The notes under the pieces: model-generated
Databases searched by the model: none
Seen by the model: the letters and a program-made list of their open reading frames with translations, nothing else
Told to the model about the DNA's origin: nothing
Source: a virus
IMG/VR virus record: IMGVR_UViG_3300008262_006988
DNA: 64,000 nucleotides
Strand: one strand, 5' to 3'
Position numbers and translations under genes: made by a program
Part shown: positions 6,042-56,421 of the stretch, one piece after another
How positions within the stretch are numbered: position 1 is the stretch's first letter
Layout: the number at the start of each line of letters is the position of its first letter

Positions 6042-6044
6042 TAT

Positions 6045-7258: not shown

Positions 7259-7262
7259 ATTA

Positions 7263-7294: not shown

Positions 7295-7325
7295 ATATTA
7301 ACTCGCTTAATAAAGGAGAAAACAT

Positions 7326-7848: not shown

Positions 7849-7862
7849 ACTTATATATAAAT

Positions 7863-18328: not shown

Positions 18329-18329
18329 A

Positions 18330-18599
18330 TTAAAAATCTATACCTAGTGTAGTGCAGGGGTTAATATTAATCTCATTACCAAAATGATCAATATCAATCA
18401 CAAGCTTACTCCCAATAGTGACAATGTACCGTTGATGTGAAGGCTGATATACTAAATGCCTTTGCTCTAAATTCAAATTAGTTTTAAGTGATTCGCTGTC
18501 TGAACTATGATAGTGAGTTGAACCAAAGATCTGTGGTTTTTTTTCCAAGCTACACGCAGTACATATAAATCCAAAAACTATGCATAAAAGAAATCTCAT
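18330..18599 (-). CDS. Putative small lipoprotein
   Basis: MRFLLCIVFGFICTAC signal/lipobox-like start. Confidence 0.5.
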   Translation of the reverse strand: MRFLLCIVFGFICTACSLEKKPQIFGSTHYHSSDSESLKTNLNLEQRHLVYQPSHQRYIVTIGSKLVIDIDHFGNEININPCTTLGIDF

Positions 18600-18636
18600 C
18601 TGACAAATGGTATGATACCTTTGTAGTGAAATCAAA

Positions 18637-19266
18637 TTAAAATAAAGCCCCGCCTTTGAAGCGAAGATAAATCATGACACCTATAACACCTGCAAGAATT
18701 ACTATAATGACATTTCTTTGTAAGATAGCAAGATCCTTTTCTACAATTTTTTTCTGCATTATATTAAGATCTTTTATCATTTTATCACGATACTCCATTT
18801 GTCTCAAAAGCTCCTCATCAACAACTATCTTTGTGTCTTGTAGATTTTTAAAATCTGCTTCTAGTTGCTTGTAAACTTCTTTTTCTTTGAGCAATTGATT
18901 ATACTCATCACTACTCACAACAACTACAGTATCGCCTTTATACCGCTCCGGTATAATAACCACTCTTTGCTTAACCTTATTGTAGGTAGGTGACTCTTTA
19001 CTGTTGCTTGCCAGGGTATTGATAGTACCTTTAAAAATAGGCTTGATATCGATGCGCTTTTTTGGTGGTTTGACAATTCTCGACGCTTGATCAATATATT
19101 TATCAGCAAGATCAATACGACCAACGTCAATAGAATCTTTTGTTGCATGAACGGTCTGTGAAAGCGCTTCAGACTGTTTTTCGGTGTATACTGTACAACT
19201 ATTTAGGCATAAAACTGCCATTACAGAAATTAAAATTGAGCTAAGTTTTCTATTATTTGTGCCCAT
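18637..19266 (-). CDS. Lipoprotein with C-terminal TM helix, candidate unimolecular spanin
   Basis: Signal peptide with lipobox LNSC, coiled-coil region, C-terminal VIIVILAGVIGVMIYL. Confidence 0.55.
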   Translation of the reverse strand: MGTNNRKLSSILISVMAVLCLNSCTVYTEKQSEALSQTVHATKDSIDVGRIDLADKYIDQASRIVKPPKKRIDIKPIFKGTINTLASNSKESPTYNKVKQRVVIIPERYKGDTVVVVSSDEYNQLLKEKEVYKQLEADFKNLQDTKIVVDEELLRQMEYRDKMIKDLNIMQKKIVEKDLAILQRNVIIVILAGVIGVMIYLRFKGGALF

Positions 19267-19277
19267 AGTCAAAGTAT

Positions 19278-20708: not shown

Positions 20709-20711
20709 TTT

Positions 20712-20837
20712 TTAATCATAAAGATAGTATGTTTTATTTTGATATTTCTTTAAAATTTTTTTCGCGTATCTTTTCTTTTTATAAATAACAAACTCTTTTT
20801 TTAAAAAAAGTAGTAAAGCTTTTATTCGAATTATCAT
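20712..20837 (-). CDS. 41-aa basic mini-protein upstream of the carbamoyltransferase
   Basis: MIIRIKALLLFLKKEF...KTYYLYD; fills the gap exactly between neighbours. Confidence 0.55.
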   Translation of the reverse strand: MIIRIKALLLFLKKEFVIYKKKRYAKKILKKYQNKTYYLYD

Positions 20838-21622
20838 TATAGTAAATTATTATTTACAATATAATCATATAAAAAAATACCGGCCTGCCTGTGGCCTTCT
20901 GCTTTTAAGTGTGCACCTGACTTTGAAACGCCGTACTCGCCAAATCTTTTTAAGTAATTAAAAACAAGCTTTCCGTTTTCGTTAAATAGTTGTATATTAT
21001 TTTTTTGCTTACCGGTATTATAGAAAATATTATACAGACTGCTGTAATGGTGTTGTAGAGTTGGTAATGTGAGGTAGGGTATTTTTTTCTCTTCCAAAAA
21101 GCACGCTGTAGCATACTTTATGTAAAAATTTGTGTCACTAAAGTTTTTAGAAAGAAAAATTCGTTCTGCAACACCTATAATAAAATCTAATGGTAGCTTG
21201 CGTATTCTTTTTGTGTGATCCATCTCAGTAACTGTCATAGGCTGACCGATATGCGCTTTTGTGCAAGCTATAACATGGCTATGACTTATTGTCGTTGTTA
21301 CATCGCTTTTCTTGGCGTATCTAAAATCACTACACGGTTCATTTACGACTGCTATCCTATCATCATCCGTCCAACCTATCAATACAAACACGTCTTCAAC
21401 ATTTGAAATAGTAGAAAGCGTTTCGAAAACTTTACTAGCTATTTGTTGATTAGAAACACCATTCATAGCAAGATTGTGGTAGCTATACCCGAGTAATTCT
21501 GCAACATACTTCGGGTACGCATGATTAATGTTTATATTATCATCTTCTAGCTTCGTATCGTAGTCATGAATAGCTTCTGCACCTCGTGTATTACTACATC
21601 CAAAAGCTAGCAATGTTTTCAT
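20837..21622 (-). CDS. SGNH/GDSL-like protein, paralog of 15830-16678
   Basis: LLAFGCSNTRGAEA, GVSN, IGWTDDDR, GAHLKAEGH. Confidence 0.6.
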   Translation of the reverse strand: MKTLLAFGCSNTRGAEAIHDYDTKLEDDNININHAYPKYVAELLGYSYHNLAMNGVSNQQIASKVFETLSTISNVEDVFVLIGWTDDDRIAVVNEPCSDFRYAKKSDVTTTISHSHVIACTKAHIGQPMTVTEMDHTKRIRKLPLDFIIGVAERIFLSKNFSDTNFYIKYATACFLEEKKIPYLTLPTLQHHYSSLYNIFYNTGKQKNNIQLFNENGKLVFNYLKRFGEYGVSKSGAHLKAEGHRQAGIFLYDYIVNNNLL

Positions 21623-21703
21623 ATGTTTATATTATATCATTTAATAGTGGTTTTCAAATACTAAAGATTGAATATGTATTTTTTTACAATAAAATAGTAG
21701 GTA

Positions 21704-22873
21704 ATGTTGACAACACCGATAAAACCGCTCGCTGGTACTGTCGTACATAGTGTCAACCATTCACATTTTTGGACTCCTTTTGATCCTGTCTATGGTAGCG
21801 GTGGTTCACCTGAATACCCTCTACGTACTGTAGTTGAGAAGCGAATAAAACAAAACGCTCTTCAGCTCAAAAATAAAGAGCTTCGTATAGAGCCTACAAA
21901 CAGATGCAATTATAGCTGTATAATGTGTCCGCGTGATTCTCATAAGCGTACGCAGGGAATTATGCCTATGCCTTTCTTTGAGAGTTTAGTCAAAGAAGGT
22001 AAAGCAATGGGCATAGAGCGTGTTCTTCTTTCGAATTTCGGTGAACCTTTTCTCGACCCTACTCTCGAAGATAAAATTTCTTTTTGTACAAAAAACAATC
22101 TTAGCACTTATGTAATTACCAATGCATCAAGGTTGAATGCTTTGAGCACTGCAGAGTTTTCAAGAGAGTTAAATGTTACAAAAGCAGAAGCAGCGATTCG
22201 TGCTGGTCTAACAGAGCTTAGATTGAGCTTTTATGGTACAACGCCAGAGTCATATACAGATATTATGAGAGGTGGTAAGTTTGATGAAGTATGTAGTAAC
22301 ATACAACGTTTTATTGAATTACGAGCTGAGATAGGTAGACGAGGCATTTCTCCTACACGTAATATTGAGGTCTTATTGCCTGAAATAAGTATATACTTTT
22401 TAGATTTACCACAAAATAGAGATCAGATTGAGGATTTTTTAAAATTAACAAAAGATTTTGCTGATTATTATGAAGTATGGAAGCCTCATAATTTTGGTGC
22501 CGGGAGAGCAAATGTATACCGTGATGTTAATGTTAGTAGTAATCTTAATACTTGCGGGAGACCGGTATCTGGTCCTCTACAGATTAATTGGCAAGGTATT
22601 GTTGTACCTTGTTGCTATGATTATAATCAAGAAGTGCCGCTCGGCAATGTAGCGTTACAGACAATTGAAGAAGTTGTCACTGGAGAACCCTATAAAGAAC
22701 TAAGAAAATGTCATAAAGAAAAATCTTTTGATAGTGTTCCTTATTGTAATAAGTGCGACCAAATTCGTGATCATTCAAATGCAATAATAATGACTACAAA
22801 TGAATTGCATCAAAATTTAACGCCACAACAGATCACACAAAGAACCAATACTCAGCCTACACACGTGTTGTAA
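21704..22873 (+). CDS. Radical SAM protein with C-terminal SPASM/twitch domain
   Basis: CNYSCIMC (CxxxCxxC), FGEP; C...PCCYD...GN...CNKC. Confidence 0.9.
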   Translation: MLTTPIKPLAGTVVHSVNHSHFWTPFDPVYGSGGSPEYPLRTVVEKRIKQNALQLKNKELRIEPTNRCNYSCIMCPRDSHKRTQGIMPMPFFESLVKEGKAMGIERVLLSNFGEPFLDPTLEDKISFCTKNNLSTYVITNASRLNALSTAEFSRELNVTKAEAAIRAGLTELRLSFYGTTPESYTDIMRGGKFDEVCSNIQRFIELRAEIGRRGISPTRNIEVLLPEISIYFLDLPQNRDQIEDFLKLTKDFADYYEVWKPHNFGAGRANVYRDVNVSSNLNTCGRPVSGPLQINWQGIVVPCCYDYNQEVPLGNVALQTIEEVVTGEPYKELRKCHKEKSFDSVPYCNKCDQIRDHSNAIIMTTNELHQNLTPQQITQRTNTQPTHVL

Positions 22874-23606
22874 CTTGCTTGTATTCTGCTAGTGTGTTGT
22901 ACCGTAACAATAGTTTAATATTGTATATTGGTTGCTTATTTTTATAGTGTGTGTTTATTGTAAAAATATGTCGCGGGTGATGATATTCTCCTGCTATAAA
23001 ATAGACCGTGCTACCTTCTTTGCAATATACAGTATAAAATAAATCTATTTCTGAACCGCATACTACCTCGTCAGCACCTGCAACTATATTTATTAGTGTT
23101 TCAATAGGGGTTGTCGTGGTATTGATAAAAACAAACCCTTCGCTAACCCAGCCGTCAATATTATCGTATTCATATACACAAAAGTCAGTTCTTGTATTAT
23201 GAGTATACAATATAATCTTTTTAAAGTCAAAAGGATTATTTATAAGTGCGCGGTGTTTCATCCTCCATCTATCACTAAATCCATCGGTGTCTATATGCTG
23301 CTTACGTACAATAATATTTTTTATTTCGTCGCTTGTATATAAATTCACCTTAAGACCAAAAAGATCAATAAACGATTTGTATTGCGGGAGATCGCTGTTA
23401 ATACTAAGTACAAAGTTTGCGTCTGGCTCAAATTCGAAATGATTTAGATCGTATAAAAAAAGATCTTCTACTGATCTATTTTCAAGAAAGTACGCACTAT
23501 CAAGAATTGTTTGCCCAGTGAGAGGTGTATTTTTTATTCTTGAAATATAATTGCAAAATGCTTGTGTCGGTGGAGGCAAAGTTAGCTGTATATTACCGGG
23601 TATCAT
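22857..23606 (-). CDS. Divergent GT61/DUF563-like protein
   Basis: C-terminal PIETLINIVAGADEVVCGS...YCKEGSTVYFI resembles the GT61 C-terminal motif; weak. Confidence 0.35.
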   Translation of the reverse strand: MIPGNIQLTLPPPTQAFCNYISRIKNTPLTGQTILDSAYFLENRSVEDLFLYDLNHFEFEPDANFVLSINSDLPQYKSFIDLFGLKVNLYTSDEIKNIIVRKQHIDTDGFSDRWRMKHRALINNPFDFKKIILYTHNTRTDFCVYEYDNIDGWVSEGFVFINTTTTPIETLINIVAGADEVVCGSEIDLFYTVYCKEGSTVYFIAGEYHHPRHIFTINTHYKNKQPIYNIKLLLRYNTLAEYKQVTTRV

Positions 23607-24728: not shown

Positions 24729-25376
24729 ATGGAAGTAAAATTAATATCTATAACAAAACCTTGTATAGAAGGTATCAATACTGCAGAAGAGCTTATCTCA
24801 TATTGCGCTCGGGTTTCAAATCCGAGCAATCAGATGAATACTGAGACAGCACCAAAATTATTGAAGTATTTGATTGAGCATAAACATTGGTCACCGTTTG
24901 AGATGGTGAGTATGACGATAGAGATTAAGACCTCGCGTGCGATTGCTGCACAAATTCTCAGACATCGAAGTTTTTCCTTTCAAGAATTTTCGCAGAGATA
25001 TTCTACTGCCACTGAGCTCGAACCGCTTCAGTGGCGTAAGCAAGGAAAAACAAATAGACAGGTAGGTGATGAAGATGCTAATGTTCTTAAATGTACAGAG
25101 ATACGTATTAAAAATTTTCAAAAGAAATGCGTAGAAATGTATAACGATTTAATTGAAGAGGGTGTAGCGAGAGAGTGTGCGAGAATGATTTTACCACTTA
25201 ACACATCGACGACACTTTATATGTCTGGAACTTTAAGAAGTTGGGTACACTATATAGATTTGCGTACAAAAGCTGATACACAGAAAGAGCATAGGGAAAT
25301 CGCCGACCAATTAAAATGTATATTTACTGCGAACTTCCCTACGGTATCGAGAGCGTTATGCTGGATGGAAGAATGA
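24729..25376 (+). CDS. thyX: Flavin-dependent thymidylate synthase
   Basis: HWSPFE, RHRSFSFQEFSQRY signature, ARECARMILP, TQKEHR. Confidence 0.97.
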   Translation: MEVKLISITKPCIEGINTAEELISYCARVSNPSNQMNTETAPKLLKYLIEHKHWSPFEMVSMTIEIKTSRAIAAQILRHRSFSFQEFSQRYSTATELEPLQWRKQGKTNRQVGDEDANVLKCTEIRIKNFQKKCVEMYNDLIEEGVARECARMILPLNTSTTLYMSGTLRSWVHYIDLRTKADTQKEHREIADQLKCIFTANFPTVSRALCWMEE

Positions 25377-25957
25377 GCTTATATTCAGAGATAGTTTTAG
25401 TTTTAAATAAAAATTGGCAGGCTATTAATGTTACTAGACCGTGCGATGCACTGTCTATGATGTATACTGGTAATGCAACAGGTTTGCATATTATTGGAAG
25501 TGAGAATATGGTTCCGTTAAAGTGGAATGACTGGGTAAAAATACCGTGTAGCGAAGGTGATAGTATTAAAACTGTACGTGGTAATATTCTGATACCAAAA
25601 ATTATAATTCTATGTAATTTTAATCGGGTACCAAAAAAGAGACCGAAATTTACTACAAAAAATCTATGGCAGCGTGATAAAGGCATATGTCAATACACCG
25701 GTAAAAAGCTTAAACCCAATGAGGGTAATATTGATCACGTGACACCACGTAGTAAAGGCGGTCAAACATCTTGGGATAATTGTGTTTTAGCACATAAGAG
25801 TGTAAATTCACAGAAAGCAGATAGAACTCCAGAAGAGGCAGGATTAAAGCTTATTAAACAACCAGTAACGCCGCAAGAGCTTCCGTCAACATATTATATA
25901 AAAAACCCTCATGGTATAAAAGAGTGGGAAGTATTTTTGACACATTTGTCTAATTGA
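25373..25957 (+). CDS. HNH endonuclease (McrA-like)
   Basis: VLVLNKNWQ, RDKGICQYTG, IDHVTPRSKGG..SWDNCV...NSQKADRTPEEAGLKL. Confidence 0.9.
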   Translation: MSLYSEIVLVLNKNWQAINVTRPCDALSMMYTGNATGLHIIGSENMVPLKWNDWVKIPCSEGDSIKTVRGNILIPKIIILCNFNRVPKKRPKFTTKNLWQRDKGICQYTGKKLKPNEGNIDHVTPRSKGGQTSWDNCVLAHKSVNSQKADRTPEEAGLKLIKQPVTPQELPSTYYIKNPHGIKEWEVFLTHLSN

Positions 25958-39325: not shown

Positions 39326-40066
39326 ATGATAGTAAATTCACTATGGATAGGTAAAGGTTTTTCTTTACTAGAAAAACTTACAATGAAAAGTTTTATCGAT
39401 CATGGGTATGACTTTCACCTGTGGGTGTATAGTAAGGAGTTAGCGAAGCTCTGTCCTGCGGGTGTTAAAGTATGTGATGCAAATCAGATTATTACTAGCG
39501 ACCGTATTTTTACTTACGAAGGTGGAGGTGATTGTAGACGTGGTTCTCTTGGTGGGTTTTCTGATTTATTTAGATACTATCTACTTCTCAGTGTAGACGG
39601 TATCTATGTAGATATGGATGTAACGTGCTTATCACCATTTGTGATAGAAAGTGATTACGGTTTTAGACCACATAGTAATGTTACTGCAGTAGCAAATATT
39701 CTTAAAGCACCAAAAAATAGCGATTTTCTTAAACGCTGCATAGAATTAACAGAAAATCATATAGACAAGCACAATACTAACTGGGTTAAGCCTGTGCAAT
39801 TATTTTCTGATGTAGTGCACGAGTTCAATTACGAGAAGTATATATTCCCTTATGAGTATTTCGGATGCGATAAGTCAGTTGATACAAATAATTACAAAAC
39901 TAAAAATTATTTCCTGTATCGTAATTTGTTACCGAAATATGGTATACATTGGTGTCATGAATGCTCGTACGGTACATGGTCATACAGTGATGTATATAAC
40001 TGGAATGAGCCGAAACCCCTTTCTGTTTATTACAATTTGCTTCTTAAGCATAAACTTATCGATTAA
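39326..40066 (+). CDS. GT32/OCH1-like DXD glycosyltransferase
   Basis: SLWIG..SLLEKL.MKSF, FSDLFRY.LL...GIYVDMD. Confidence 0.82.
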   Translation: MIVNSLWIGKGFSLLEKLTMKSFIDHGYDFHLWVYSKELAKLCPAGVKVCDANQIITSDRIFTYEGGGDCRRGSLGGFSDLFRYYLLLSVDGIYVDMDVTCLSPFVIESDYGFRPHSNVTAVANILKAPKNSDFLKRCIELTENHIDKHNTNWVKPVQLFSDVVHEFNYEKYIFPYEYFGCDKSVDTNNYKTKNYFLYRNLLPKYGIHWCHECSYGTWSYSDVYNWNEPKPLSVYYNLLLKHKLID

Positions 40067-40069: not shown

Positions 40070-41743
40070 ATGTGTAGCATTTTTGTAGCAATAACAAAGA
40101 ATAATAAAAGAGTTGATCACCAGGCATGTATTTCTGCCTTACATACAACAAAATCACGTGGACCTGATAATACATATTACACTTCTAACGGTAGTGTTTT
40201 TATTGGTGTAAATGTTCTTTCGCTTACTGGATCTACTTCAGTTAAAGACTACACATGTGATAAAGGTATTCTCGGGTTTAATGGTGAAATTTATAATTAT
40301 AATAAGCAACAGTACGATTCCGACACACAGGCTCTCTTTTTAAAGCTTATATCGTCAAATGACAAGTGTAAAGTAACGCGCGAGATTGAAGGCATGTTTT
40401 GTTATGCATTTTATGATAAAACATCACACGACCTTTATTTAGCGCGCGATGTTTTCGGTGAGAGAACACTTTACATATATGAAAATGAGGATTTATTACT
40501 TGCTTCATCGACTCTTCATGGTATAGAAAAATATATTGGAAAATTGCATATTGCTGAAGATCTCATCTCTTCGTATTTTTATACTCGACATTTTTTAACG
40601 TATAATAGTACTGTATATAAAAATGTGAGGCAAATCTTGCCTGGTACAATAGAAGTGTATAATGTACGTAACTATTCAAAGAGAGTATATACATATGAAA
40701 GTATAGCAGATTATATTTGTAGTAAACAAATGCAAGAATATGCGCGTGCTAATGATGAGGAGATGGTGGAGGAGCTAGATAGTACTCTTGACCATGTAAT
40801 GAAACAGATGTTACCGCTTCATCATAGCAGTGTCAGTTTTTCAGGGGGTATTGATTCGTCGCTTATAGCGCATTATACTGCAAAACATACTAACGACTAC
40901 ACACTCATCGGTATAAATTGTGTAGGTAAGGATTATATCTCTAACGATCTTAAAAAATTTCAACCATACTTTAATAATCAGATAATAACATTAGATATTA
41001 AGGAAAAGCAGTGGTGTAGCACTGTAAAAGATAGTTATAATATCACTCTGCAACCTCTTGGGTCACATAATTATTGCACAAAAGTATTTCTTGCAAAGTA
41101 TTTACAAAAGAAAGGTATAAAAGTGTTGTTTGGTGGTGAAGGTGCTGATGAATTATTCGGTGGCTATGATTTTTACCATATAATTGACGATACGTGTAGA
41201 TATAATATATCACCATATTCGAGTAAATTAACCTCTGTTATCGACTTCGCTCATAAAATAAGTGAAAATCCTCAATCATACCTCGATAAAATATGGGAAA
41301 AAGCGTATAGTATATATAACAGTGCGGTTCTATCGACATCTTTCACCGATACATCACTTGTAGTTAATGATGATGGAGTACGTAATACCGATCAGATAGC
41401 AGGCTGGTATGGTATTGAGGGTAGAACGCCTTTCTTACATAAAAAAATGCTTAAATTTGCATTAAATTTACCTTCAAAGTATAAACGCGGAAAGCCCCTC
41501 TTAAGGAAGTTGTTTGAAAAAAAGTTTCCTACTGTGTCTATTGAAAAAAAACAAGGTTTTGCAGGTTTTCCAAATGAATCGCAAAAGTATTATGCTCTTG
41601 ATAATACTTTTACATTATTTAATATAAATGATCTAACAAAATACGATACTGCAACACAGTGGAAATTACTCAATATTTATTATTTTTATGAAAGCTATAA
41701 TAGTAGGAACATCAGCAGAGCTTCTCGAGCACGAGCATGGTGA
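40070..41743 (+). CDS. Asparagine-synthase-like glutamine amidotransferase
   Basis: N-terminal MC, RGPD, FNGEIYN, ARDVFGE, SGGIDSS, GEGADELFGGY, EGRTPFL. Confidence 0.92.
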   Translation: MCSIFVAITKNNKRVDHQACISALHTTKSRGPDNTYYTSNGSVFIGVNVLSLTGSTSVKDYTCDKGILGFNGEIYNYNKQQYDSDTQALFLKLISSNDKCKVTREIEGMFCYAFYDKTSHDLYLARDVFGERTLYIYENEDLLLASSTLHGIEKYIGKLHIAEDLISSYFYTRHFLTYNSTVYKNVRQILPGTIEVYNVRNYSKRVYTYESIADYICSKQMQEYARANDEEMVEELDSTLDHVMKQMLPLHHSSVSFSGGIDSSLIAHYTAKHTNDYTLIGINCVGKDYISNDLKKFQPYFNNQIITLDIKEKQWCSTVKDSYNITLQPLGSHNYCTKVFLAKYLQKKGIKVLFGGEGADELFGGYDFYHIIDDTCRYNISPYSSKLTSVIDFAHKISENPQSYLDKIWEKAYSIYNSAVLSTSFTDTSLVVNDDGVRNTDQIAGWYGIEGRTPFLHKKMLKFALNLPSKYKRGKPLLRKLFEKKFPTVSIEKKQGFAGFPNESQKYYALDNTFTLFNINDLTKYDTATQWKLLNIYYFYESYNSRNISRASRARAW

Positions 41744-42323
41744 TTATATTGATAGCTTTGATTATGTCGCTAGATCTATTTCTGTCGCGGAGTTTCCAGG
41801 ATACGAAACACACGTAGGTACCAAAACTAATATGTTTTGGTCAAAGTATCAATATCTTTTTCGGTTTAAGTATATATTACAAACATATTGTAATGATTTA
41901 TTATTACTTGAAGAAGACCCTGATGAATATAGAGAGAGCTTTTGTATAAACCATCGGTATGAGCGTTATAATCGGTTGTTTTTTGATTTATGGTATGCAA
42001 TGCTATCCTCTAAACACAATTTAAAAAACATTTTTTACTATAGTAGAAAAAACTTACACGATTTACATAAGAAGATGGGGTACAGATCGCATAACGATTG
42101 CAACACGCCAACAGTCTATTCAAGCGCAGGTGCACGTGTGTTAGATTTTTTTGTCAACAATACAGACTGTTTTAATGAAATATGGGTCACGGGGTTTTCT
42201 TTTTTTGATAAGGCTACGTATTTTAACCCTGCAACTAATCATATGGTACGAGAGCATTGCTACTATAAAGAAAAATACTTTTACAAAAATCTTTTAAAAG
42301 AGAAAAAAATATATGAACTCTGA
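41688..42323 (+). CDS. GT29 sialyltransferase-like protein 1
   Basis: Motif L (IIVG...IDSFDYVAR...GYETHVGTKT), motif S (SSAG...VTGF), H..E (HCYYKE). Confidence 0.72.
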   Translation: MKAIIVGTSAELLEHEHGDYIDSFDYVARSISVAEFPGYETHVGTKTNMFWSKYQYLFRFKYILQTYCNDLLLLEEDPDEYRESFCINHRYERYNRLFFDLWYAMLSSKHNLKNIFYYSRKNLHDLHKKMGYRSHNDCNTPTVYSSAGARVLDFFVNNTDCFNEIWVTGFSFFDKATYFNPATNHMVREHCYYKEKYFYKNLLKEKKIYEL

Positions 42324-43086
42324 CTTACATAGCGTAGTAATAGTAGGTAACAGTTTGAATTTATTAGAGACCAAGAGAGGCGATGTAATAGATAACTGTG
42401 ATATTGTAGTACGTATGGGGAGTTACTGCATCGATGGTTATGAAGAATATGTTGGTACGAAGACAGATATTTTTTGTACAATTGCAAATATGTTTTGCAA
42501 AAATTCACCTGATGATTCTGTTCTTTTTGCACTCGACCCTGGAATGACTTCTTTTAATTTTAAAAAAATTTTATTTTTAGAATATGATTGCGATGACTAT
42601 TATGAATCCACTGTACATGGTAATTCTTGGGGTAGCGGTAGTATACCGATACCGCCTGCTGCTGCTGGCGCTTTATATTTTAAAAAACTCTGCTCTTCAG
42701 ATAAGTTCAAATTAGCGTTTCAAAATCATATTGTTATTGATAGAATGATTCTTGATTATTTTATAGAGTACTTGCAGCTTGTTAATAAGGATGTATGTGT
42801 TGAGTTTTATAATAGCCTTTGGCGATCGAGGCTTTTTGCTAACTTTAATAGTATATTTCCGCAAATGGACATAGCGGTACCATCAAAAGGAATGTATATA
42901 ATCGATTATATTTTAAGAACGTTTAAAGACAGTAAAATATACGTTTGCGGTTTTGATGGATTTAGGACCACAAATTATTGGAGGCAGCTCGGTCCACTAA
43001 CATACACTTTTAGGAGCCATCAGCCTGCAAAAGAACAGTATATGTATAAAAAATTATTACGCGAAGGAATTATACATGAGCTGTAA
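42313..43086 (+). CDS. GT29 sialyltransferase-like protein 2
   Basis: VVIVGNS...IDNCDIVVRMG...VGTKT; PSKG...VCGFDGF...YW; HQPAKE. Confidence 0.8.
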   Translation: MNSDLHSVVIVGNSLNLLETKRGDVIDNCDIVVRMGSYCIDGYEEYVGTKTDIFCTIANMFCKNSPDDSVLFALDPGMTSFNFKKILFLEYDCDDYYESTVHGNSWGSGSIPIPPAAAGALYFKKLCSSDKFKLAFQNHIVIDRMILDYFIEYLQLVNKDVCVEFYNSLWRSRLFANFNSIFPQMDIAVPSKGMYIIDYILRTFKDSKIYVCGFDGFRTTNYWRQLGPLTYTFRSHQPAKEQYMYKKLLREGIIHEL

Positions 43087-43792
43087 TAACATCATCATAG
43101 TAGGTAACGGTGGCTGCTTACTTAACTCTAAAAATGGTAGTAAGATCGACTCTTATGATTATGTTGTACGTATGGGAAACTGTATAACTCGTGGATACGA
43201 GGAACATACCGGGACAAAGACAGATTTATACAGAGCTTCATGGGATAGATTACTTCACAATATCAATAAAACAAATATATATAGACCTATCGATCTTAGT
43301 TTCACATTTCATACACTTCTTCTTCTCGAGCGACAACCCGATACTTTTCATGAGACGGTATCAACAATGCTTTTAAAAAACAATACAAAATTATTTAAAA
43401 AGCCTTTTTTTCCAGAAATTTCATTTCCAGATTTTATTTTTTTAAAAAGAAATGAGCGTATTACACATGAATGTTGTTTAGAATATTTTACTAAGAAATA
43501 TAATATACGTACAGTAGAGCATATGGATATTGATACAAGAGTAAATGTTTTTTTACAGGTTAATACCCCAGCGAAACAAAATATGGTATTACCGTCGAGC
43601 GGTATACTCACACTCGCACATATTATTAAGACGAGACCTAATGATAATATTACTATTACTGGGTTTGATGGTTTTACTACGAGATATTATTGGCGTGATT
43701 ATGAAACATACTTTGATGGTCATAGCTCTTACCGTGAAAAGATGTTTATAAAACAATTAGTGAAAGATGGTAGAATAAGCATACTCAATTAA
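43076..43792 (+). CDS. GT29 sialyltransferase-like protein 3
   Basis: IIIVGNGGCL...GSKIDSYDYVVRMG...GTKT; PSSG...ITGFDGF..YYW; HSSYRE. Confidence 0.82.
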   Translation: MSCNNIIIVGNGGCLLNSKNGSKIDSYDYVVRMGNCITRGYEEHTGTKTDLYRASWDRLLHNINKTNIYRPIDLSFTFHTLLLLERQPDTFHETVSTMLLKNNTKLFKKPFFPEISFPDFIFLKRNERITHECCLEYFTKKYNIRTVEHMDIDTRVNVFLQVNTPAKQNMVLPSSGILTLAHIIKTRPNDNITITGFDGFTTRYYWRDYETYFDGHSSYREKMFIKQLVKDGRISILN

Positions 43793-43799
43793 CTCAAAG

Positions 43800-44498
43800 A
43801 TGAAACGTATTATTATTATCGGTAATAGCTGCAGCCTCTTAGAACAAAAAAACGGGGATATAATTGATGGTTATGACTATATTGTAAGAATGGGCGGTAC
43901 ACCACGCATTAAAGGTTATGAAAAACATGTGGGTACCAAAACTAACATGTATTGTATGAAGTGGTTCAAATATTTTAATGTAGAAGTGGGAATTAATGAT
44001 ACCAATTTTGGGCAGATGCGTGAAAAGTTAGAGATAGAATATGATGATGTATTGTGTCTGTTACAAGACCCTGATAATTTCTACGAAGTAGCGACACCTT
44101 TTCAGCGATATGAAAAAAATTCTTTAAACAGATCGTTTTACTATCAAATAGGTGATAGATATCTACATGATTCTGCAATCTTAAACTTTAACTTACAGCA
44201 AAAGCAATGGTATTTCTTTAATAGTATAGATATGCAACAGCTTGTATGCTATTTACAGGGATATGATTCTAATATACGTTATAATAATGGTATTGAACCT
44301 ACAGCTGGACTATGTGTTATTTGGTTTTTTATGCAAAATTTTTCAAATTGTGAAATAACAGTTACGGGATTTGATGGATTTAAGACCGGACATTATTGGA
44401 AGCCGGCAATTAGTACTTTTTTTCAAAGCCACAATGGTTTAAGCGAGTGGATGTTTATAAAAAAATTAATAAAACGCGGTGATATAAGACTATTATGA
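43800..44498 (+). CDS. GT29 sialyltransferase-like protein 4
   Basis: IIIIGNS...IDGYDYIVRMG...VGTKT; PTAG...VTGFDGF..HYW; HNGLSE. Confidence 0.8.
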   Translation: MKRIIIIGNSCSLLEQKNGDIIDGYDYIVRMGGTPRIKGYEKHVGTKTNMYCMKWFKYFNVEVGINDTNFGQMREKLEIEYDDVLCLLQDPDNFYEVATPFQRYEKNSLNRSFYYQIGDRYLHDSAILNFNLQQKQWYFFNSIDMQQLVCYLQGYDSNIRYNNGIEPTAGLCVIWFFMQNFSNCEITVTGFDGFKTGHYWKPAISTFFQSHNGLSEWMFIKKLIKRGDIRLL

Positions 44499-45175
44499 AT
44501 ATTGTAGTGGTAGGAAATGGTCGCAGCGATGTTATGAGAGGTAATCTAATAGATAGTTTTGATTATGTAGTGCGTATGGGTTCGTGTTGCATCGATGGAT
44601 ACGAGCATTATGTTGGTACGAAGACAAGTATGCTGCGTTCATCATGGGATAGATTTTTTGGAAAAAAAGAAGATGGTACTCATGAATTTGTAAGTAAAAT
44701 TATTGGTTTTACTGATTTTCTCTTTTTAGAGCCGTATTTTGAGCCATTTTATGAAACAATGCATTTCGGCAATGTGTATCATTTGTATAAGATTTTTAAT
44801 AAGCCACGTTTTTTACAAAAGAGATTTATTAGCATTAAAAACGAGCGTATTTTGCATGAAATGTTTATAAGAGAGCATCTTTCACAAAAAAATATCTTTT
44901 ATTATAATATAAAAGATAGGGTTTCGCTTTTTTGTGAGTATAATAGTATGTATAATGACAGAGTCTTACATATGCCTTCAGCAGGCCTCTTTACTATTGA
45001 TTATATAGTAAAAACGTTTACTGATAGTGATATCTATATCACAGGCTTTGATGGATTTAAGACAAAATATTACTGGAGAAGTAATGATGAATACTTTGAT
45101 TCTCATAGCTCCATTAAAGAACAGTTATATCTTAAAAAATTACTTACTAAAGGTATCATTAAAGAGTTGCCATAA
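44495..45175 (+). CDS. GT29 sialyltransferase-like protein 5
   Basis: IVVVGNG...IDSFDYVVRMG...VGTKT; PSAG...ITGFDGF..YYW; HSSIKE. Confidence 0.8.
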   Translation: MNIVVVGNGRSDVMRGNLIDSFDYVVRMGSCCIDGYEHYVGTKTSMLRSSWDRFFGKKEDGTHEFVSKIIGFTDFLFLEPYFEPFYETMHFGNVYHLYKIFNKPRFLQKRFISIKNERILHEMFIREHLSQKNIFYYNIKDRVSLFCEYNSMYNDRVLHMPSAGLFTIDYIVKTFTDSDIYITGFDGFKTKYYWRSNDEYFDSHSSIKEQLYLKKLLTKGIIKELP

Positions 45176-45207: not shown

Positions 45208-45897
45208 ATGGTCAATATTTACGTTGGTTGGGATAGTAGAGAGGTAGAGGCTTATAATGTATGCTGTGAGTCAATTAAGAGCCGAACACAGAAAAGTATT
45301 AATTATAATATAATACCTCTTAAAAAGCACGAATTACAGACGAGCGGGTTGTATTCGAGAAATTCTGATCCGCTTGCATCAACAGAATTTACATATACAA
45401 GATTTCTCGTACCTCTTTTACAAGACTATAAAGGTCTCGCAATTTTTTGTGATTGTGATTTTCTGTGGCTTGAAGGTATAGATGCGTTGTTACATGATAT
45501 AGATATAGATACACACAAAGCTGTTTACGTCTGTAAGCATGATTATACCCCTTCTCAAGAGATAAAAATGGACAATAAAGTTCAATCCTCTTACCCGAGA
45601 AAAAATTGGTCAAGTTTGATTGTATGGAATTGTGATCATGAAAAAAATAAAGTTCTCACAAAAGAAAAAGTTAATAGTGAGACTGGAGCTTTTCTTCATA
45701 GATTTCAATGGTTAGATGATAATGAAATCGGTGATATAAATATTCAATGGAACTGGCTTGTGGGTGAGTACTGCGAGGAGCAGCACGGATCACCAAAAGC
45801 TTTACATTATACAAATGGAGGACCGTGGTTTGAAAATTATAAAAATTGTCCTTACGCTTCTGTTTGGAATAAAGAACGCGATAGAATTGCATTTTAA
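45208..45897 (+). CDS. GT-A glycosyltransferase (GT8-like, similar to plant CDI family)
   Basis: IYVGWDSRE, STEFTYTRFLVP, FCDCDFLW (DXD), YPRKNWSS, HYTNGGPW. Confidence 0.85.
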   Translation: MVNIYVGWDSREVEAYNVCCESIKSRTQKSINYNIIPLKKHELQTSGLYSRNSDPLASTEFTYTRFLVPLLQDYKGLAIFCDCDFLWLEGIDALLHDIDIDTHKAVYVCKHDYTPSQEIKMDNKVQSSYPRKNWSSLIVWNCDHEKNKVLTKEKVNSETGAFLHRFQWLDDNEIGDINIQWNWLVGEYCEEQHGSPKALHYTNGGPWFENYKNCPYASVWNKERDRIAF

Positions 45898-46168
45898 GTT
45901 TACTTCTCATCGCCGCATTACATATAAAAAGCAGAGTTGCAATTTAAGGCGACATCAACCCAAGAAACAAGATTATAAAAAACGCAATAAACTCGCCGGT
46001 CAATTTTTTGATTTTAATCAGCCTTGCCCGCCTATGATAAAAAATTGCATGGAATTGCGTGTACAGTACGAGAATGAAGTGAAAAAGCTCGAAAGCTATA
46101 AACTCTGTACACAGTGTAGTATTTTATTTTTGAGACAAAATATTATTGCATCTTTTGAAGTTGACTGA
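45815..46168 (+). CDS. Small Cys-rich protein (start uncertain), paralog of 47095-47322
   Basis: FFDFNQPCP..I..C.ELR..Y...V...CTQC; the nearest upstream ATG lies inside the GT8 gene. Confidence 0.5.
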   Translation: MEDRGLKIIKIVLTLLFGIKNAIELHFKFTSHRRITYKKQSCNLRRHQPKKQDYKKRNKLAGQFFDFNQPCPPMIKNCMELRVQYENEVKKLESYKLCTQCSILFLRQNIIASFEVD

Positions 46169-47021
46169 TTATATCAAAACTCGATTTACCGTAAAGTGTA
46201 CCGTTAGTACTACAATTCTTACATGCATCATCGATACGTTTACCGTTTGCTAAATTATGCCTTACATCGGTCAACTGTTTACTAAACCAAAGATCATAAA
46301 AAGATGTATTCATTATATTACCAAGACCTGTTTGCTGCCTGTGCCAATCATTGCAGCATAAAACAATATCACCATTCCAATCTATTGTAATCCTATAAAA
46401 TGGTATAAAGCATTGTTGCTTTACTTTATTAAATTTAATATTTGTTACAGCGCCTGCTCTGTTGTTAAAATTCCACTCTTCAACTGTCTGCTCTAACGTC
46501 TGACTCTCTTTATCGTACCAAAGCCGTCTTAGTGCATATTTTTTAAAAGGTATTTTAGCAAACATTTGTTCTCGTGCAATAGCTTGATCTTCACCGTCAT
46601 AACAATCTACAACAATTCTATCTACATGATCTTTTATTTTTTCTACGTCATCACAGGTTAAAAAATCACCGTTTGTTGTGAGCTCTACATAGCACTCACG
46701 TAGCTCGTTCTTAATGTGAATAATATAATCGAGTATATTAGAATTGAGCAGTGGTTCGCCGAACCCTGAGATATGTATCGCTCCTTTATAGTTATTTTCC
46801 TTGAGTTGTTCAATAAGGCGATCTATAACCTTTCGATCCATTTGTAATTTTCTGTTCGGGTAAACTGCGGAATCATGCCTCGGGCAAAATACACATTTAC
46901 GGTTACAAAGCTCTGTAACATTTAATTCTATAGTTGTAAGACCTATCAATTTACCATATCTCTGCTCTTCAATAAATTGTTTATGAATAATATCACGCGT
47001 GTTTATATGATCTAACGACAT
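46143..47021 (-). CDS. Radical SAM/SPASM protein
   Basis: CNRKCVFC, GFGEP, NNRAG, C.IPF...LCCNDW...GN...CKNC. Confidence 0.9.
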   Translation of the reverse strand: MSLDHINTRDIIHKQFIEEQRYGKLIGLTTIELNVTELCNRKCVFCPRHDSAVYPNRKLQMDRKVIDRLIEQLKENNYKGAIHISGFGEPLLNSNILDYIIHIKNELRECYVELTTNGDFLTCDDVEKIKDHVDRIVVDCYDGEDQAIAREQMFAKIPFKKYALRRLWYDKESQTLEQTVEEWNFNNRAGAVTNIKFNKVKQQCFIPFYRITIDWNGDIVLCCNDWHRQQTGLGNIMNTSFYDLWFSKQLTDVRHNLANGKRIDDACKNCSTNGTLYGKSSFDIISQLQKMQ

Positions 47022-50905: not shown

Positions 50906-52331
50906 CAAATTTTTTTACGATATCTAAGAACGGTTGTTCAGGTACACGTGTTTTAAAAACGTTAAAGTTATATTTCGCAATTTGCTTAGCTTTCATAAAA
51001 AGAGCATTATATTCTTCTTCTGGTAGTTTTAAAATTTTATTCACAACTTCAGTAATTTTATTCATTCGTATTTGTGGGTCTTCTTCATCATCATAGCTCT
51101 CATCCCATAAATTAGCAAACGTCATATAACCACACGTCTTTAAGAATTTTAAGATACCTGGCTGACCGAGAACAATAAACGGTGCCTTAAATGCTATCGG
51201 TTTATATGTCTTTTCAGTTATAAACCGATATGCACAGTTTGTTGTATTTCTTGTCTCTGCTATAGTCTCGGTGACAATATGTATATCGCAATTTCGATAC
51301 ATATCCATATTAAACGTATTCCAGTGATTATATTTAAAAAAATCACTAGCCGTAAATTGATTGTTCATGTGTTGATTCTCATATGCACCTTGTATAGTTT
51401 CAGTATCAAATTCTGTAAAAAGCGGTAGTTTTGCTAAAAAAAGTTCTATATCTTTTTTTTCATTTTTTGTTATTTTTTGTGGGTCAAAAAAGCGATAGCT
51501 TTCTAATATATTATTTCTTGTTGTGTAGGGTGATAATTTTAAAAGCTTGTCGTACGTTATTTCTTCAAGACTTACGCAAATATTATTAAAGCTGTAGTTG
51601 TTCTGTCTCCATATTTGGTAACACAAAAAATATCTGTGTTGACGTGGTCTCGCATTTAATAATAGCATTCTATATTTGCTATACTTTTTCGTTATTTTTG
51701 TAAAGTGTGTATAAGTATGTCGCATATAGAAATTATATGCGCGTTTCGTTACACATTCAAAAAACGGCCAAAAAACTACATTAAATTTAAATGGTAATCT
51801 TCGTACGTTGCAGTCGTTTGACGTAAAGATGATTACTTTTTCTATATCGAGCTGTATTTGATCACAAAAATTTTTTAATGTTTCATAATGTTTGTCAGTA
51901 TAAAATGACGCTTCTGACATATCATTAATAATAAACAAACATTGTTTATTGTTTATACTATAAACGTGTTCAGGTGTTAGGAGGTCCTTTAAAAAATTTT
52001 TATGTATATCATCCTCTATCAGTTTAATCATGTAACGCGGACTGATCGTATATACAAATTTCTCGTGTGTCAGTATTATATCAGATAGTTTCTTACGGTT
52101 GACTTTAAATTGAGTGCTTAAAATTGTCTCAGGAAGAATATGATAATCATGGCGTGTAATAGTACATGTAAATTGTCTGTTGTCAGGAAATTTAAACAAT
52201 CTTTCAAAATCATCACCGTTAATATAAGTGTATAAATTCGCGTAATGGTTAAAAAACCTACCGTCACTTTTTGAACTTACTTGCGGGCTATCGCAGAGCT
52301 TATTATAAGCAAAATTTATTGAACCATACAT
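50892..52331 (-). CDS. Putative glycosyltransferase with GT10-like C-terminal motif
   Basis: HIVTET...FITEKTYKPI...PFIVLG...GY.TF...WDESYD. Confidence 0.5.
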   Translation of the reverse strand: MYGSINFAYNKLCDSPQVSSKSDGRFFNHYANLYTYINGDDFERLFKFPDNRQFTCTITRHDYHILPETILSTQFKVNRKKLSDIILTHEKFVYTISPRYMIKLIEDDIHKNFLKDLLTPEHVYSINNKQCLFIINDMSEASFYTDKHYETLKNFCDQIQLDIEKVIIFTSNDCNVRRLPFKFNVVFWPFFECVTKRAYNFYMRHTYTHFTKITKKYSKYRMLLLNARPRQHRYFLCYQIWRQNNYSFNNICVSLEEITYDKLLKLSPYTTRNNILESYRFFDPQKITKNEKKDIELFLAKLPLFTEFDTETIQGAYENQHMNNQFTASDFFKYNHWNTFNMDMYRNCDIHIVTETIAETRNTTNCAYRFITEKTYKPIAFKAPFIVLGQPGILKFLKTCGYMTFANLWDESYDDEEDPQIRMNKITEVVNKILKLPEEEYNALFMKAKQIAKYNFNVFKTRVPEQPFLDIVKKFVSEE

Positions 52332-53437
52332 TGAAGTGAAGATATTAAATTCTGAAGCTTATTGTGATTAATAAGATGTTTTACTTTAATTTGTTGATAT
52401 GTCTCAATAATCTCTTTAATTGTTTCTGTAGGTAATGTATGTATGCTTACTTCTGGTAGCAGCTCATCATATGCAACTGTAATACCTTCTTTAACTTTAC
52501 CGTTTTCATGGATACCCTTAATGCGTGTACCAAGAACACCCGAGACATTATTGAAACATATATTTATATTAAAATCATCACAAAACTTAAGTATATCGGG
52601 TATATCACGCCAGTTTTGTATCATTGGACACACTGCTACACTATTAAAAATTTTACGACGGTTTTTATTCTCATATTCTTGTATAGATGTTATATTTTTT
52701 AGCACTGTATTAAGATCGCCGCCACGACGTATAAATTTATATGTATCATGGTTGAGTGAATCAATAGAAATACAGACTATTACGTCTTTATACCTGTCAA
52801 AAATATCAAATACTTTTTGATTTAAAATGCTACCGTTGGTTGTGATACAAATCTCAATGTTTGGATTATAGGTATAAAGCATCTCCCATATCTTATAGTA
52901 TAAAGGTGTTGCAAACGGCTCACCACCAAGAAATTTCGCACATTGTAAATGTGGAGCAAAGAGAGTCAGTTGTTTTAAGAACTCGTCATCATATGGCGAC
53001 ACAAGTGGTGGTAGTTTTTCGCGGTTTTTGCGTATAGATGAAGACCAATCTCCTCCGCACATAATACACTCATAGTTACATATTGATGACATCTCAAATT
53101 CCAGCATAACTGGAAAAATGCTATTTAACTTGAATTGTTTATGGTGAAATGCTGCGAGAAGTGAGTTATGATAATTGCCGGATGATATTTGCTTGTAGCA
53201 ACTTGTACAACCTTTTGTAAAGTCAAAACTATCAATAGCTTTACGCATTTCTTTTATTTTTTCACCGAACCATATATCAGTAAGTGAAGATTCAGGGTAT
53301 CTCCCGAGTTCGTAGTCCCTGCTCATACAGCATGCTGATATAATACCTGTAGATTTAAAATTAAGTGATACAAAGGGCGCGTTGCAGACATGCTGCTTGG
53401 CAGTAAGAAAGTCAAATACTTGCTTTATATCACTCAT
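52316..53437 (-). CDS. Radical SAM protein with N-terminal SPASM/twitch domain
   Basis: CNAPF...ACC...GCTSC, then CNYECIMC, GGEPF, TTNGS. Confidence 0.88.
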   Translation of the reverse strand: MSDIKQVFDFLTAKQHVCNAPFVSLNFKSTGIISACCMSRDYELGRYPESSLTDIWFGEKIKEMRKAIDSFDFTKGCTSCYKQISSGNYHNSLLAAFHHKQFKLNSIFPVMLEFEMSSICNYECIMCGGDWSSSIRKNREKLPPLVSPYDDEFLKQLTLFAPHLQCAKFLGGEPFATPLYYKIWEMLYTYNPNIEICITTNGSILNQKVFDIFDRYKDVIVCISIDSLNHDTYKFIRRGGDLNTVLKNITSIQEYENKNRRKIFNSVAVCPMIQNWRDIPDILKFCDDFNINICFNNVSGVLGTRIKGIHENGKVKEGITVAYDELLPEVSIHTLPTETIKEIIETYQQIKVKHLINHNKLQNLISSLQCMVQ

Positions 53438-54933: not shown

Positions 54934-56421
54934 TTAAATGTTGTTTGGTATGACGGCGTTAAAGTTTGTAGATGTAACTACACCGTTTTGGTATATAATA
55001 TTACCATACCCGAACAAGTATTTTGAATAATCTGCCGCTGTCATTGTTCCAGTCCATGTTACAACACCATTAAGGTCGGTTGCTGATACTGTTGGAACTT
55101 GTATCCAAGTACGTGAGAAATTAAAAGGCTCAACCTGACATGTCCAGAATTGAACCGCAGAAACAGGAACTGAAATAGTATCAGGCTTTACATTAAATTG
55201 CGGTATACCCGCAGGTTTTGTAAACCAAGCTGTTGGTCTATTCGGCCAAGTAATAGCTGCACTAAGAACATATTTATTAAGCCATAGAGCTTCATTACCA
55301 ACGTTTAAGGTCACATCGTGCATCTTGTTTGCATCATGGGAAAAGTCCCATGGAATACCAGATGGTATTTTTGAGAAAGTATCGTCTACTCTATCGTGTC
55401 CCCCGTGGTGATCATTAGAGCCGTTAATCAATAAAATTGGAACACGTGTAAAATTTGCTTCCATCTCAGCTGTAGGGGCATTTAAATAAATTCTCTCACC
55501 TGAAAGCCATGCTGGATATGTAGTTGCAGGTACCTTGTATTTCCAAAGATTTTTATCACGATAGTATGTTGTCCATCCGTTTCCAAAGTACGAAACTACG
55601 GCTTTTATTCTATCATCCATTGCCATGCTCCACGACATCGTACCACCATAAGAGTGGCCTCTCATACCAATTTTATTAACGTTTATTTCAGGCTGAGTTA
55701 AAAGATACTCAAATGCTCTACGCATAACACATGCCCACAAATATTCGCTTGTTTGTCTAGCATCACTAATTTGACCGCCACCTGAGAGGGTTGTGTTAAT
55801 TGTATATCCGCCTTCAGTAGATCTGTGAATACCGTATGATAAGGCCGGCGGATATTCAGTTACCGGTAAAGCATCCGGTCTTTTGCCAGCGTAGTCATAT
55901 CCAAATGTGGCCCACCCAGCAGATGTATATGACGGGTAGTCTTGAAGATAGCTTTGCCATCCCTGCGCTACAAACAAGCAAGGAAACCCTCCGGCGGGAG
56001 GAGTACTAGTAGGGACAACGTAGTAGCAAAATAATCTAAAAGTATACCCGGAAAAAGTTATATCAATATACAGTTTTCTTTTTCTGAGCCCGTCAGCGGT
56101 AGTATCCTCAATGACTTGAGGATTAAATGGTCCGTTGCCAGCTTCAGTAGGATCGAACTTTGCAAATGAATATCCTTTCCTCCATAAAGATGCACCATTT
56201 GCAATCAGGTTTGTATTATCTGTCTTGTACCACTCTCCGTTTCGTTTATAAGCATACGTACCACTTATTGCTGTAGAATTAGCAACCGTTAAACCATTGC
56301 CATCTGTACAATAAATTAATTCACCATTCGATCCTGTTATTGACAAATAATCAGTAGTATAACTATCGGGGTTCGTAGATAGAGGAGACAGGGTTGTAGA
56401 TCCAAATATGATACCAGGCAT
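54934..56421 (-). CDS. Alpha/beta-hydrolase (acetylxylan-esterase/dienelactone-hydrolase-like) with N-terminal structural extension
   Basis: GHSYG nucleophile elbow, NGSND, H (NKMHD); ~75-aa fibre-like N-terminus. Confidence 0.78.
   Translation of the reverse strand: MPGIIFGSTTLSPLSTNPDSYTTDYLSITGSNGELIYCTDGNGLTVANSTAISGTYAYKRNGEWYKTDNTNLIANGASLWRKGYSFAKFDPTEAGNGPFNPQVIEDTTADGLRKRKLYIDITFSGYTFRLFCYYVVPTSTPPAGGFPCLFVAQGWQSYLQDYPSYTSAGWATFGYDYAGKRPDALPVTEYPPALSYGIHRSTEGGYTINTTLSGGGQISDARQTSEYLWACVMRRAFEYLLTQPEINVNKIGMRGHSYGGTMSWSMAMDDRIKAVVSYFGNGWTTYYRDKNLWKYKVPATTYPAWLSGERIYLNAPTAEMEANFTRVPILLINGSNDHHGGHDRVDDTFSKIPSGIPWDFSHDANKMHDVTLNVGNEALWLNKYVLSAAITWPNRPTAWFTKPAGIPQFNVKPDTISVPVSAVQFWTCQVEPFNFSRTWIQVPTVSATDLNGVVTWTGTMTAADYSKYLFGYGNIIYQNGVVTSTNFNAVIPNNI

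Follow-up and report, generated by a model that had tools for sequence, protein, structure and literature searches.

GT29 is known from textbooks as the animal sialyltransferase family; little is understood about its origin or about the members found in prokaryotes. Here we describe an array of five tandem GT29 open reading frames (ORFs) of 211–257 amino acids (aa), located at 41688–45175 (+) of a 64-kb stretch of viral DNA (the window), which is part of the 168.8-kb contig IMGVR_UViG_3300008262_006988; all results on this phage cover the window only. In GT29 enzymes the histidine of sialylmotif VS is the catalytic base, variation within the fold falls in the regions that bind the acceptor, and the characterised members act on sugar hydroxyls; in the Golgi sialyltransferases the disulfide between motifs L and S is essential (PMC8433944). 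The original prediction for this DNA gave GT29 to animals, plants and myxoma virus, a distribution that is outdated, as bacteria and an archaeon also carry the family. The bacterial proteins, mostly from marine alpha-proteobacteria and placed at the base of the GT29 tree, have the four sialylmotifs with neither a transmembrane anchor nor conserved L–S cysteines, and have been assigned a function by inference only (Petit et al. 2018, PMC5811610). [quoted passage not shown]

Among phages, the sugar clusters of the cyanomyoviruses P-SSM2 (PMC1079782) and S-SCSM2R (PMC12801897) resemble the present locus in that they are large accessory sets of glycosyltransferase, epimerase and tailoring genes of unproven target in T4-like genomes; they differ in that no GT29 has been reported from them and none was detected by tblastn, whereas the cluster in the window is dominated by GT29. 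The GT6 enzyme of P-SSM2 (PMC3516806) is likewise a minimal catalytic domain of a ‘vertebrate-type’ glycosyltransferase family with many relatives in marine metagenomes, but it belongs to another family (uridine diphosphate-sugar donor, retaining, metal-dependent) and is a single gene. The suggestion that such a system is undescribed in phages agrees with our literature search, which found no description of a GT29 or sialyltransferase in phages or cyanophages. The sole ‘sialyltransferase’ annotation found belongs to phage TayeBlu and bears the name alpha-2,3-/2,8-, which is what CstII-type (GT42) enzymes do. Neither the GT29 family nor sugar clusters in phages are new, and we found no paper on a diversified GT29 array carried by a phage; what sets the present locus apart is an array of this size, in a T4-like cyanophage and beside fibre genes, with no donor pathway in the window.

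All five proteins passed the gathering cutoff of Pfam PF00777 (Glyco_transf_29; 23 bits) with 36.7–76.6 bits, so that the predicted family membership was borne out by HMMER, and no other Pfam family scored above cutoff at E ≤ 1. With phmmer, motif L of paralog 3 was aligned to human ST6GalNAc2 (6e-10) and to porcine ST3Gal1. A profile constructed from 74 phage and metagenome homologs matched GT29 structures only in the PDB (2e-15 to 2e-7), and in its alignment all four sialylmotifs fall in register with those of the solved enzymes. The predicted sialylmotifs L, S, III-like and VS were seen in each of the five paralogs. In motif L all five share G, G, ID, D, R, GYE and GTKT without exception; the P/S-S/T-x-G … G-F-(D/S)-(G/F)-F block of motif S is in register with ‘PSTG…YGF’ of solved enzymes; and the aromatic core of motif III (HYW, YYW, NYW or TYF) is present, its ‘YW’ being aligned with ‘HYWE’ of ST3Gal1. 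Motif VS aligns to ‘VHDGDFE’ (‘HDGDFE’) of ST3Gal1 and ‘YHPLLYE’ (‘HPLLYE’) of ST6Gal1, and its H-x4-E is kept in all five paralogs and in the 17 of 17 relatives checked (22 proteins).

The AlphaFold2 model of paralog 3 had a pLDDT (predicted local distance difference test) of 90.6 and a pTM (predicted template modelling score) of 0.90, and according to AlphaFold2, Foldseek and VIA-align it adopts the GT-A variant 2 fold. The top 30 Foldseek matches and every hit with E ≤ 1e-4 were GT29 structures (best ST6GalNAc2, 5.9e-10), followed by GT42 CstII at 2e-4 and by nothing else meaningful. Overlay on the animal families by VIA-align gave Z 15.3 for ST6GalNAc2 (6apl; root-mean-square deviation (rmsd) 3.8 Å over 195 residues), Z 15.0 for ST3Gal1 (2wml; rmsd 2.9 Å over 176 residues, 24% identity), Z 14.4 for ST8Sia3 and Z 13.5 for ST6Gal1; hence the GT29 fold that the prediction implied was recovered in the model at Z 13.5–15.3. 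Assignment to GT42 (CstI/CstII-type) was rejected because only PF00777 was matched and CstII reached Z 11.6 versus 15.3 and 2e-4 versus 6e-10 in Foldseek. Assignment to Maf (PF01973, MptE-like) was rejected as well, with no PF01973 hit and Z of only 7.5 for 5mu5. Both belong to a related fold class with CMP-nonulosonate donors (CMP, cytidine monophosphate), and Maf acts on Ser/Thr of filament proteins in the cytoplasm, but their structural match is weaker (Z 7.5 for Maf and 11.6 for CstII versus 15 for GT29) and neither family is matched in Pfam. By hidden Markov models (HMMs) and motifs the five proteins are true members of GT29, with a fold predicted from the model of paralog 3.

Motif L starts at residues 4–8 in each paralog, which is the first strand of the catalytic domain. 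No hydrophobic N-terminal segment that could serve as a type II membrane anchor or stem was found in any of the five, and no invariant Cys column for the L–S disulfide exists among them, Cys counts and positions being variable. The earlier description as ‘eukaryote-type’ therefore has to be dropped; the same three features are missing in bacterial GT29 (PMC5811610). The window proteins share the motif set of these bacterial enzymes and differ from them in being phage-borne, in a five-copy tandem and very short, with the catalytic core only. Compared with animal GT29 (6apl, 2wml/2wnb, 5bo9, 4js1), the fold is alike (Z 13–15, rmsd 2.9–3.8 Å over 174–199 residues), motif L is locally ∼40–50% identical and the S block, the aromatic core of motif III and H-x4-E are in register, whereas anchor, stem, N-glycosylation context and L–S disulfide are missing, motif III has a basic residue or Asn at position 4, the middle (acceptor) region is unrelated and of smaller size, and overall identity is just 17–25%. 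The E. coli K6 protein is likewise a prokaryotic GT29 domain from a surface-glycan locus and is read as CMP-Kdo-dependent, but it is a single fused domain of a bacterial capsule locus with export machinery, neither phage-borne nor in an array (PMC13171606). GT29 was found in none of 14 control genomes, Synechococcus elongatus included. In species-representative prokaryote genomes, very narrow peptide patterns matched one Luteolibacter metagenome-assembled genome, which is not a prevalence estimate.

The coordinates and lengths of the five coupled ORFs, all on the + strand, are exactly as predicted. Their junctions are, in array order, an 11-nt overlap, an 11-nt overlap, a 7-nt gap and a 4-nt overlap, indicating translational coupling, and paralog 1 starts 56 nt inside the AsnB-like gene upstream. 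The five are old paralogs, copies 2–5 being 29–32% identical to paralog 1. Their mean pairwise identity falls from 51% in the motif-L block to 20% in the middle and rises again to 39% in the S/III/VS block, which supports the predicted pattern of conserved ends and variable middle. No PHROG family covers any of the five proteins. With metagenome relatives at 27–80% identity and conserved synteny, the array is far beyond chance.

Some or all copies might nevertheless be non-catalytic or decaying duplicates, such as glycan-binding pseudoenzymes or relics, and not a five-enzyme pathway: paralog 1 is off consensus at several motif positions, and paralog 2 lies on a long branch, has no ortholog in the relatives examined, shifts its placement between two trees and matches Pfam through motif L only. 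We regard this as very unlikely, because each of the five ORFs is intact and retains both H-x4-E and the S block and because four orthogroups are kept across relatives at 50–60% identity. Moreover, the deviant residues of paralog 1 (VGTS, ARS(I/V)S, GFSFF, TYF and HCYYKE) are identical in all four of its well-diverged orthologs, which indicates purifying selection and suggests a specialised enzyme rather than a decaying one.

A search of 5.8 billion proteins with paralog 3 recovered 25 relatives of 27–80% identity, all without a name or called ‘hypothetical’. The operon is syntenic in at least six related contigs with four to eight GT29 copies, the gene order being a fibre gene with Peptidase_S74 chaperone, two unknown genes, GT32-like, AsnB-like, the GT29 copies, GT8-like and an inverted radical S-adenosylmethionine (SAM)/SPASM gene. 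Five copies are present in contigs L003–L005 and L077, 4 + 2 in a 155-kb contig and 4 + 4 in a 50-kb contig (IMGVR_UViG_3300044644_002471, 50,158 bp), whose two separate four-gene arrays were recorded as loci L006 and L008. In a maximum-likelihood tree the copies of this lineage form one clade with four orthogroups at 97–100% support, and the order of orthogroups in the array differs among phages, orthologs of paralog 4 being at array position 2 in L001 and L006. A fifth group has no member in the window and was recently quadruplicated in L008, where the four tandem duplicates have end branches of 0.08–0.15. Read from these sequences, the array is a product of birth-and-death evolution of a functional gene family. 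A nucleotide search with the array against 50,697 phage records gave no match, and tblastn with paralog 3 against deposited phages gave two weak motif-L matches only; hence the array is carried by no deposited phage.

Short GT29 proteins are common on viral contigs. A profile search of 1.84 billion representatives gave 4054 hits at E ≤ 1e-3, of which 811 reached E ≤ 1e-10; most of the best-scoring ones were proteins of 165–260 aa aligned from the first residues. At least 61 viral loci in IMG/VR have GT29-like genes. These are mostly single-copy, with independent arrays of seven genes in L013, four in L032 and three in L064, so that the copy-number survey of viral contigs did yield repeated arrays. 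In L013, from a phage with P22-type coat, the order is major head protein, methyltransferases, seven GT29, CMP-synthetase and NeuB. The gene at the head of this GT29 cluster, directly after the major head protein gene (1433–2740, +), encodes 435 aa with a weak MptE-like match (Maf-type, PF01973, below cutoff) and a SAM methyltransferase domain. In L064 the order is NeuB, CMP-synthetase, GT8, sulfotransferase and GT29s. If phages have a module for Kdo transfer, its cleanest candidate is a compact cassette at 4863–8750 of locus L028 (IMGVR_UViG_3300047459_000157, genome G022; 70.8 kb, CheckV 100% complete), which comprises JmjC/cupin, KdsB, KdsA, an unknown protein of 213 aa and GT29 and stands beside the ribonucleotide reductase genes.

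One GT29 gene was found in a cultured phage. AAY80_202 (gp202) of Stenotrophomonas phage DLP_6 (KU682439.2, 116909–117700; L080 6910–7701) encodes a ‘hypothetical protein’ of 263 aa, which scored 31.8 bits with PF00777 and 71.8 bits over its full length with the phage GT29 profile. It lies directly downstream of the GT8-like gp201, a homolog of the GT8-like gene in the window, and is followed by glutaredoxin; a methyltransferase and a GT4-type gene are nearby. In S-SCSM2R, a GT8-like gene with 46% identity to that of the window lies three genes from KdsB/KdsA, and its AsnB-like gene is 24.5% identical to that of the window. ORF262 and ORF263 of the same phage, candidate mini-GT29 genes by their size and their place between the GT8-like gene and KdsB, were negative in the GT29 test.

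The window derives from a T4-like myovirus of cyanophage type, as indicated by tail-fibre, baseplate and virion-protein PHROGs. The best tblastn matches of a structural protein (64–66%) were in Synechococcus phages, which accounted for 103 of the 134 matching records. The operon lies between two fibre-gene blocks, on the same strand as the upstream block and 42 nt from it (Table 1). In the relatives, the GT32-like gene has the same position (L001, L003–L005 and L077), the AsnB-like gene in every case immediately precedes the GT29 copies on their upstream side, and the radical SAM/SPASM neighbour is kept in L003–L005, L077 and the 155-kb contig. AsnB-like amidotransferases amidate sugar acids in bacterial glycan pathways, and the protein encoded here is a candidate for such an enzyme. 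The GT8-like protein had an Atlas feature score of 0.98 to clusters in which 13–40% of members have PF01501, which we take as a lead. Late-type TATAAATA boxes stand directly before structural genes and before a 496-aa gene at 37793, and none before the glycosyltransferase genes; their overall count in the window was at chance (18 versus 15.3 expected), as were promoter sites (74 versus 70 expected) and terminators (6 versus 6.9 expected). A sigma70-like site before the GT32-like gene (9/12 matches) was indistinguishable from background, and hence we make no claim on the timing of expression.

Table 1. Glycan-related genes of the window, with positions counted from its first nucleotide
Feature	Position	Strand	Remarks
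GT32-like glycosyltransferase (Gly_transf_sug, DXD type)	39326–40066	+	First operon gene; PF04488 28.9 bits (cutoff 23)
AsnB-like glutamine amidotransferase (GATase_7 + Asn_synthase)	40070–41743	+	PF00733 95.9 bits; PF13537 49.1 bits; phrog_16728
GT29 paralog 1	41688–42323	+	211 aa; PF00777 36.7 bits; most divergent orthogroup, support 100/100; VGTS, ARS(I/V)S, GFSFF, TYF, HCYYKE
GT29 paralog 2	42313–43086	+	257 aa; PF00777 44.3 bits, motif L only; S block, NYW and HQPAKE present
GT29 paralog 3	43076–43792	+	238 aa; PF00777 76.6 bits, best GT29 match of the five; modelled copy
GT29 paralog 4	43800–44498	+	232 aa; PF00777 54.5 bits; HYW, HNGLSE; orthogroup support 100/98
GT29 paralog 5	44495–45175	+	226 aa; PF00777 38.4 bits; YYW, HSSIKE; orthogroup support 97/94
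GT8-like nucleotide-sugar glycosyltransferase	45208–45897	+	229 aa; closes operon; phrog_28018 8.7e-57
Radical SAM/SPASM enzyme	46143–47021	-	PF04055 52.8 bits; PF13186 52.6 bits; conserved neighbour
Weak nucleotidyltransferase-like ORF	14969–15835	+	Second sugar-tailoring island
RmlD-like reductase	17124–17975	-	Second sugar-tailoring island
NodU/NolO-type carbamoyltransferase	19278–20708	-	Second sugar-tailoring island
Radical SAM/SPASM enzyme	21704–22873	+	Second sugar-tailoring island

The explanation that we favour, and hold to be somewhat better than an even bet, is that minimal GT29 enzymes add a CMP-activated sugar acid to a glycan built by the operon. The array would encode five soluble, cytoplasmic, catalytically intact transferases of the prokaryotic and phage ‘minimal’ type with the catalytic domain only, and by homology each would use a CMP-activated 2-keto-3-deoxy sugar acid, either Kdo or a nonulosonic acid. 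Transfer to a sugar hydroxyl would be metal-free and inverting, with the motif-VS histidine as base. The glycan would be primed by the GT32-like and GT8-like enzymes and tailored by the AsnB-like amidotransferase, all from the same operon, and the CMP-sugar would be taken from the host, with CMP-Kdo as the leading candidate. The donor motifs are conserved, and the L-to-S segment, which makes up the acceptor site in solved GT29 enzymes, has diverged strongly; the paralogs would therefore most likely share one kind of acidic sugar and differ in the acceptor position or linkage that they serve on the glycan. A different class of donor or acceptor altogether, with phage DNA or a small molecule being modified for example, might be considered since T4-like phages glycosylate DNA, but the T4 DNA glucosyltransferases have a different fold from GT29. 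Moreover, the characterised GT29, GT42 and Maf enzymes all use CMP-ulosonic acids on glycan or protein acceptors, and the linkage of the phage genes is to NeuB, KdsA and CMP-synthetase, which makes this alternative extremely improbable.

For the donor sugar, we searched GT29-bearing viral contigs, most of which are fragments. CTP_transf_3 (the KdsB/NeuA family) was present in 24 of 47 searchable contigs, NeuB in 12 of 47 and a KdsA-family synthase in 7 of 43, figures that are raw co-occurrences and not enrichments, and donor genes were adjacent to GT29 in all three loci examined in detail (L013, L064 and L028). This linkage of viral GT29 to genes of Kdo and nonulosonate activation independently supports a CMP-ulosonic acid as donor. 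In the window, Pfam scans of 40 proteins detected no NeuA, NeuB or Kds gene, and when eight viral proteins of the NeuB, CMP-synthetase and KdsA types were compared by phmmer with all 314 window frames (stop-to-stop, ≥50 aa), the best E was 0.13, in accord with the original statement that the window has none; thus the 41 kb upstream and the 19 kb downstream of the array yielded no donor gene, nor did the 50-kb relative (G001). Since no frame of the window encodes a donor pathway, the host probably supplies the CMP-sugar, which is the most economical reading. CMP-Kdo is the most generally available candidate in Gram-negative envelopes.

As to the carrier of the glycan, given that the chemistry is right, we lean slightly towards the fibres or other virion proteins of the phage over the host envelope, at somewhat below even chances. 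The virion is favoured because fibre genes flank the operon on both sides with only 42 nt to the upstream fibre block, and because the array of L013 directly follows the major head protein gene.

Several observations weigh against parts of this interpretation. The consensus of motif III is (H/y)-Y-(Y/W/F/h)-(D/E/q/g) (PMC8433944), and all five paralogs have R, K or N at position 4 in place of D/E/Q/G. The donor identity and the transferase activity proposed for the short GT29 form are read from homology and gene linkage. In a broader tree the deep nodes were not resolved, and the window clade was placed with neither the Kdo-linked nor the nonulosonate-linked viral GT29s. About 105 kb of the phage genome lies outside the window, and CMP-nonulosonate or CMP-Kdo genes of the phage itself could be located there. 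A donor made by the phage would fit with the CMP-synthetase on half of the GT29-bearing viral contigs and with the KdsA/KdsB of the cultured cyanomyovirus S-SCSM2R; we consider it rather unlikely, because L013, L064 and L028 have their donor genes adjacent to GT29 whereas the flanks in the window have none, and the 50-kb relative lacks donor genes as well. With respect to the target, the GT29 enzymes have no direct link to virion proteins, and the accompanying families (GT8-like, GT32-like, AsnB-like, carbamoyltransferase and RmlD-like) are equally typical of lipopolysaccharide (LPS) and capsule loci.

The same chemistry could hence be directed at the host surface, an alternative that we hold as tentative. 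The operon would then remodel LPS, O-antigen or exopolysaccharide during the long latent period of cyanophages and so, for example, block superinfection or keep progeny from binding to debris, a role that has been proposed for cyanomyovirus ‘LPS’ clusters. In P-SSM2, 24 sugar genes have been hypothesised to change the LPS of the host (PMC1079782), and the 13 glycosyltransferases plus kdsA/kdsB of S-SCSM2R were interpreted as serving cell-wall modification (PMC12801897). The control genome of S. elongatus had hits to CTP_transf_3 and to the DAHP_synth_1 family, the latter (PF00793) also covering the DAHP synthases of the aromatic pathway. Kdo is itself a sugar of LPS. Against a host target, Pfam scans of the window proteins detected neither a flippase or polymerase nor a lipid-carrier priming transferase or export gene, the surroundings of the operon are fibre genes and not early or host-takeover genes, and GT29 arrays sit inside head modules in other phages.

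A few further features of the window were recorded. The second sugar-tailoring island (14008–23606; Table 1) also has several genes without a family, and no NeuB, KdsA or CMP-synthetase is among its genes. The window encodes three radical SAM/SPASM enzymes, the third of which, at 52316–53437 (-), has its SPASM domain N-terminal to the radical SAM core. In addition to the carbamoyltransferase, Hsp20, ThyX, dCMP deaminase, three tRNAs and a transfer-messenger RNA (tmRNA) are encoded. The tmRNA, at 10412–10851 (+), is full-length and one-piece (Rfam RF00023, 130.8 bits versus a cutoff of 47), its tag ends in …YELAA according to ARAGORN, and together with tRNA-Pro, tRNA-Gly and tRNA-Ser it makes up a small RNA island. 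An HNH endonuclease gene, probably of the homing type, at 25316–25957 (+), overlaps the 3′-end of thyX (24729–25376). A 495-aa alpha/beta-hydrolase (Peptidase_S9/DLH-like) at 54934–56421 (-) ends the downstream fibre block and may be a virion-borne esterase.

Minimal soluble GT29 enzymes are common on phage contigs, have repeatedly been amplified into arrays and are linked elsewhere to genes of Kdo and nonulosonate activation. The GT8-like/GT29 pair gp201–gp202 of DLP_6 makes the question experimentally approachable in a cultured phage. Short soluble proteins that need neither disulfide nor glycosylation would, if active, be attractive biocatalysts with varied acceptor specificities. It is possible, if still speculative, that a lytic T4-like cyanophage covers the fibres or virion that it builds with an acidic, sialylation-like glycan of several linkages by means of five diversified GT29 enzymes and CMP-Kdo or CMP-nonulosonate of the host, and that ulosonic-acid glycosylation by GT29 is widespread in aquatic phages. 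If true, no earlier case of a sialylation-like modification of the virion would be known from bacteriophages, and the patchy spread of GT29 between bacteria and eukaryotes could plausibly have been carried by phages. If the enzymes are active, phages are makers of sialylation-like glycans, which bears on phage–host recognition, on the recognition of virions by grazers and immune systems and on the movement of GT29 between domains.

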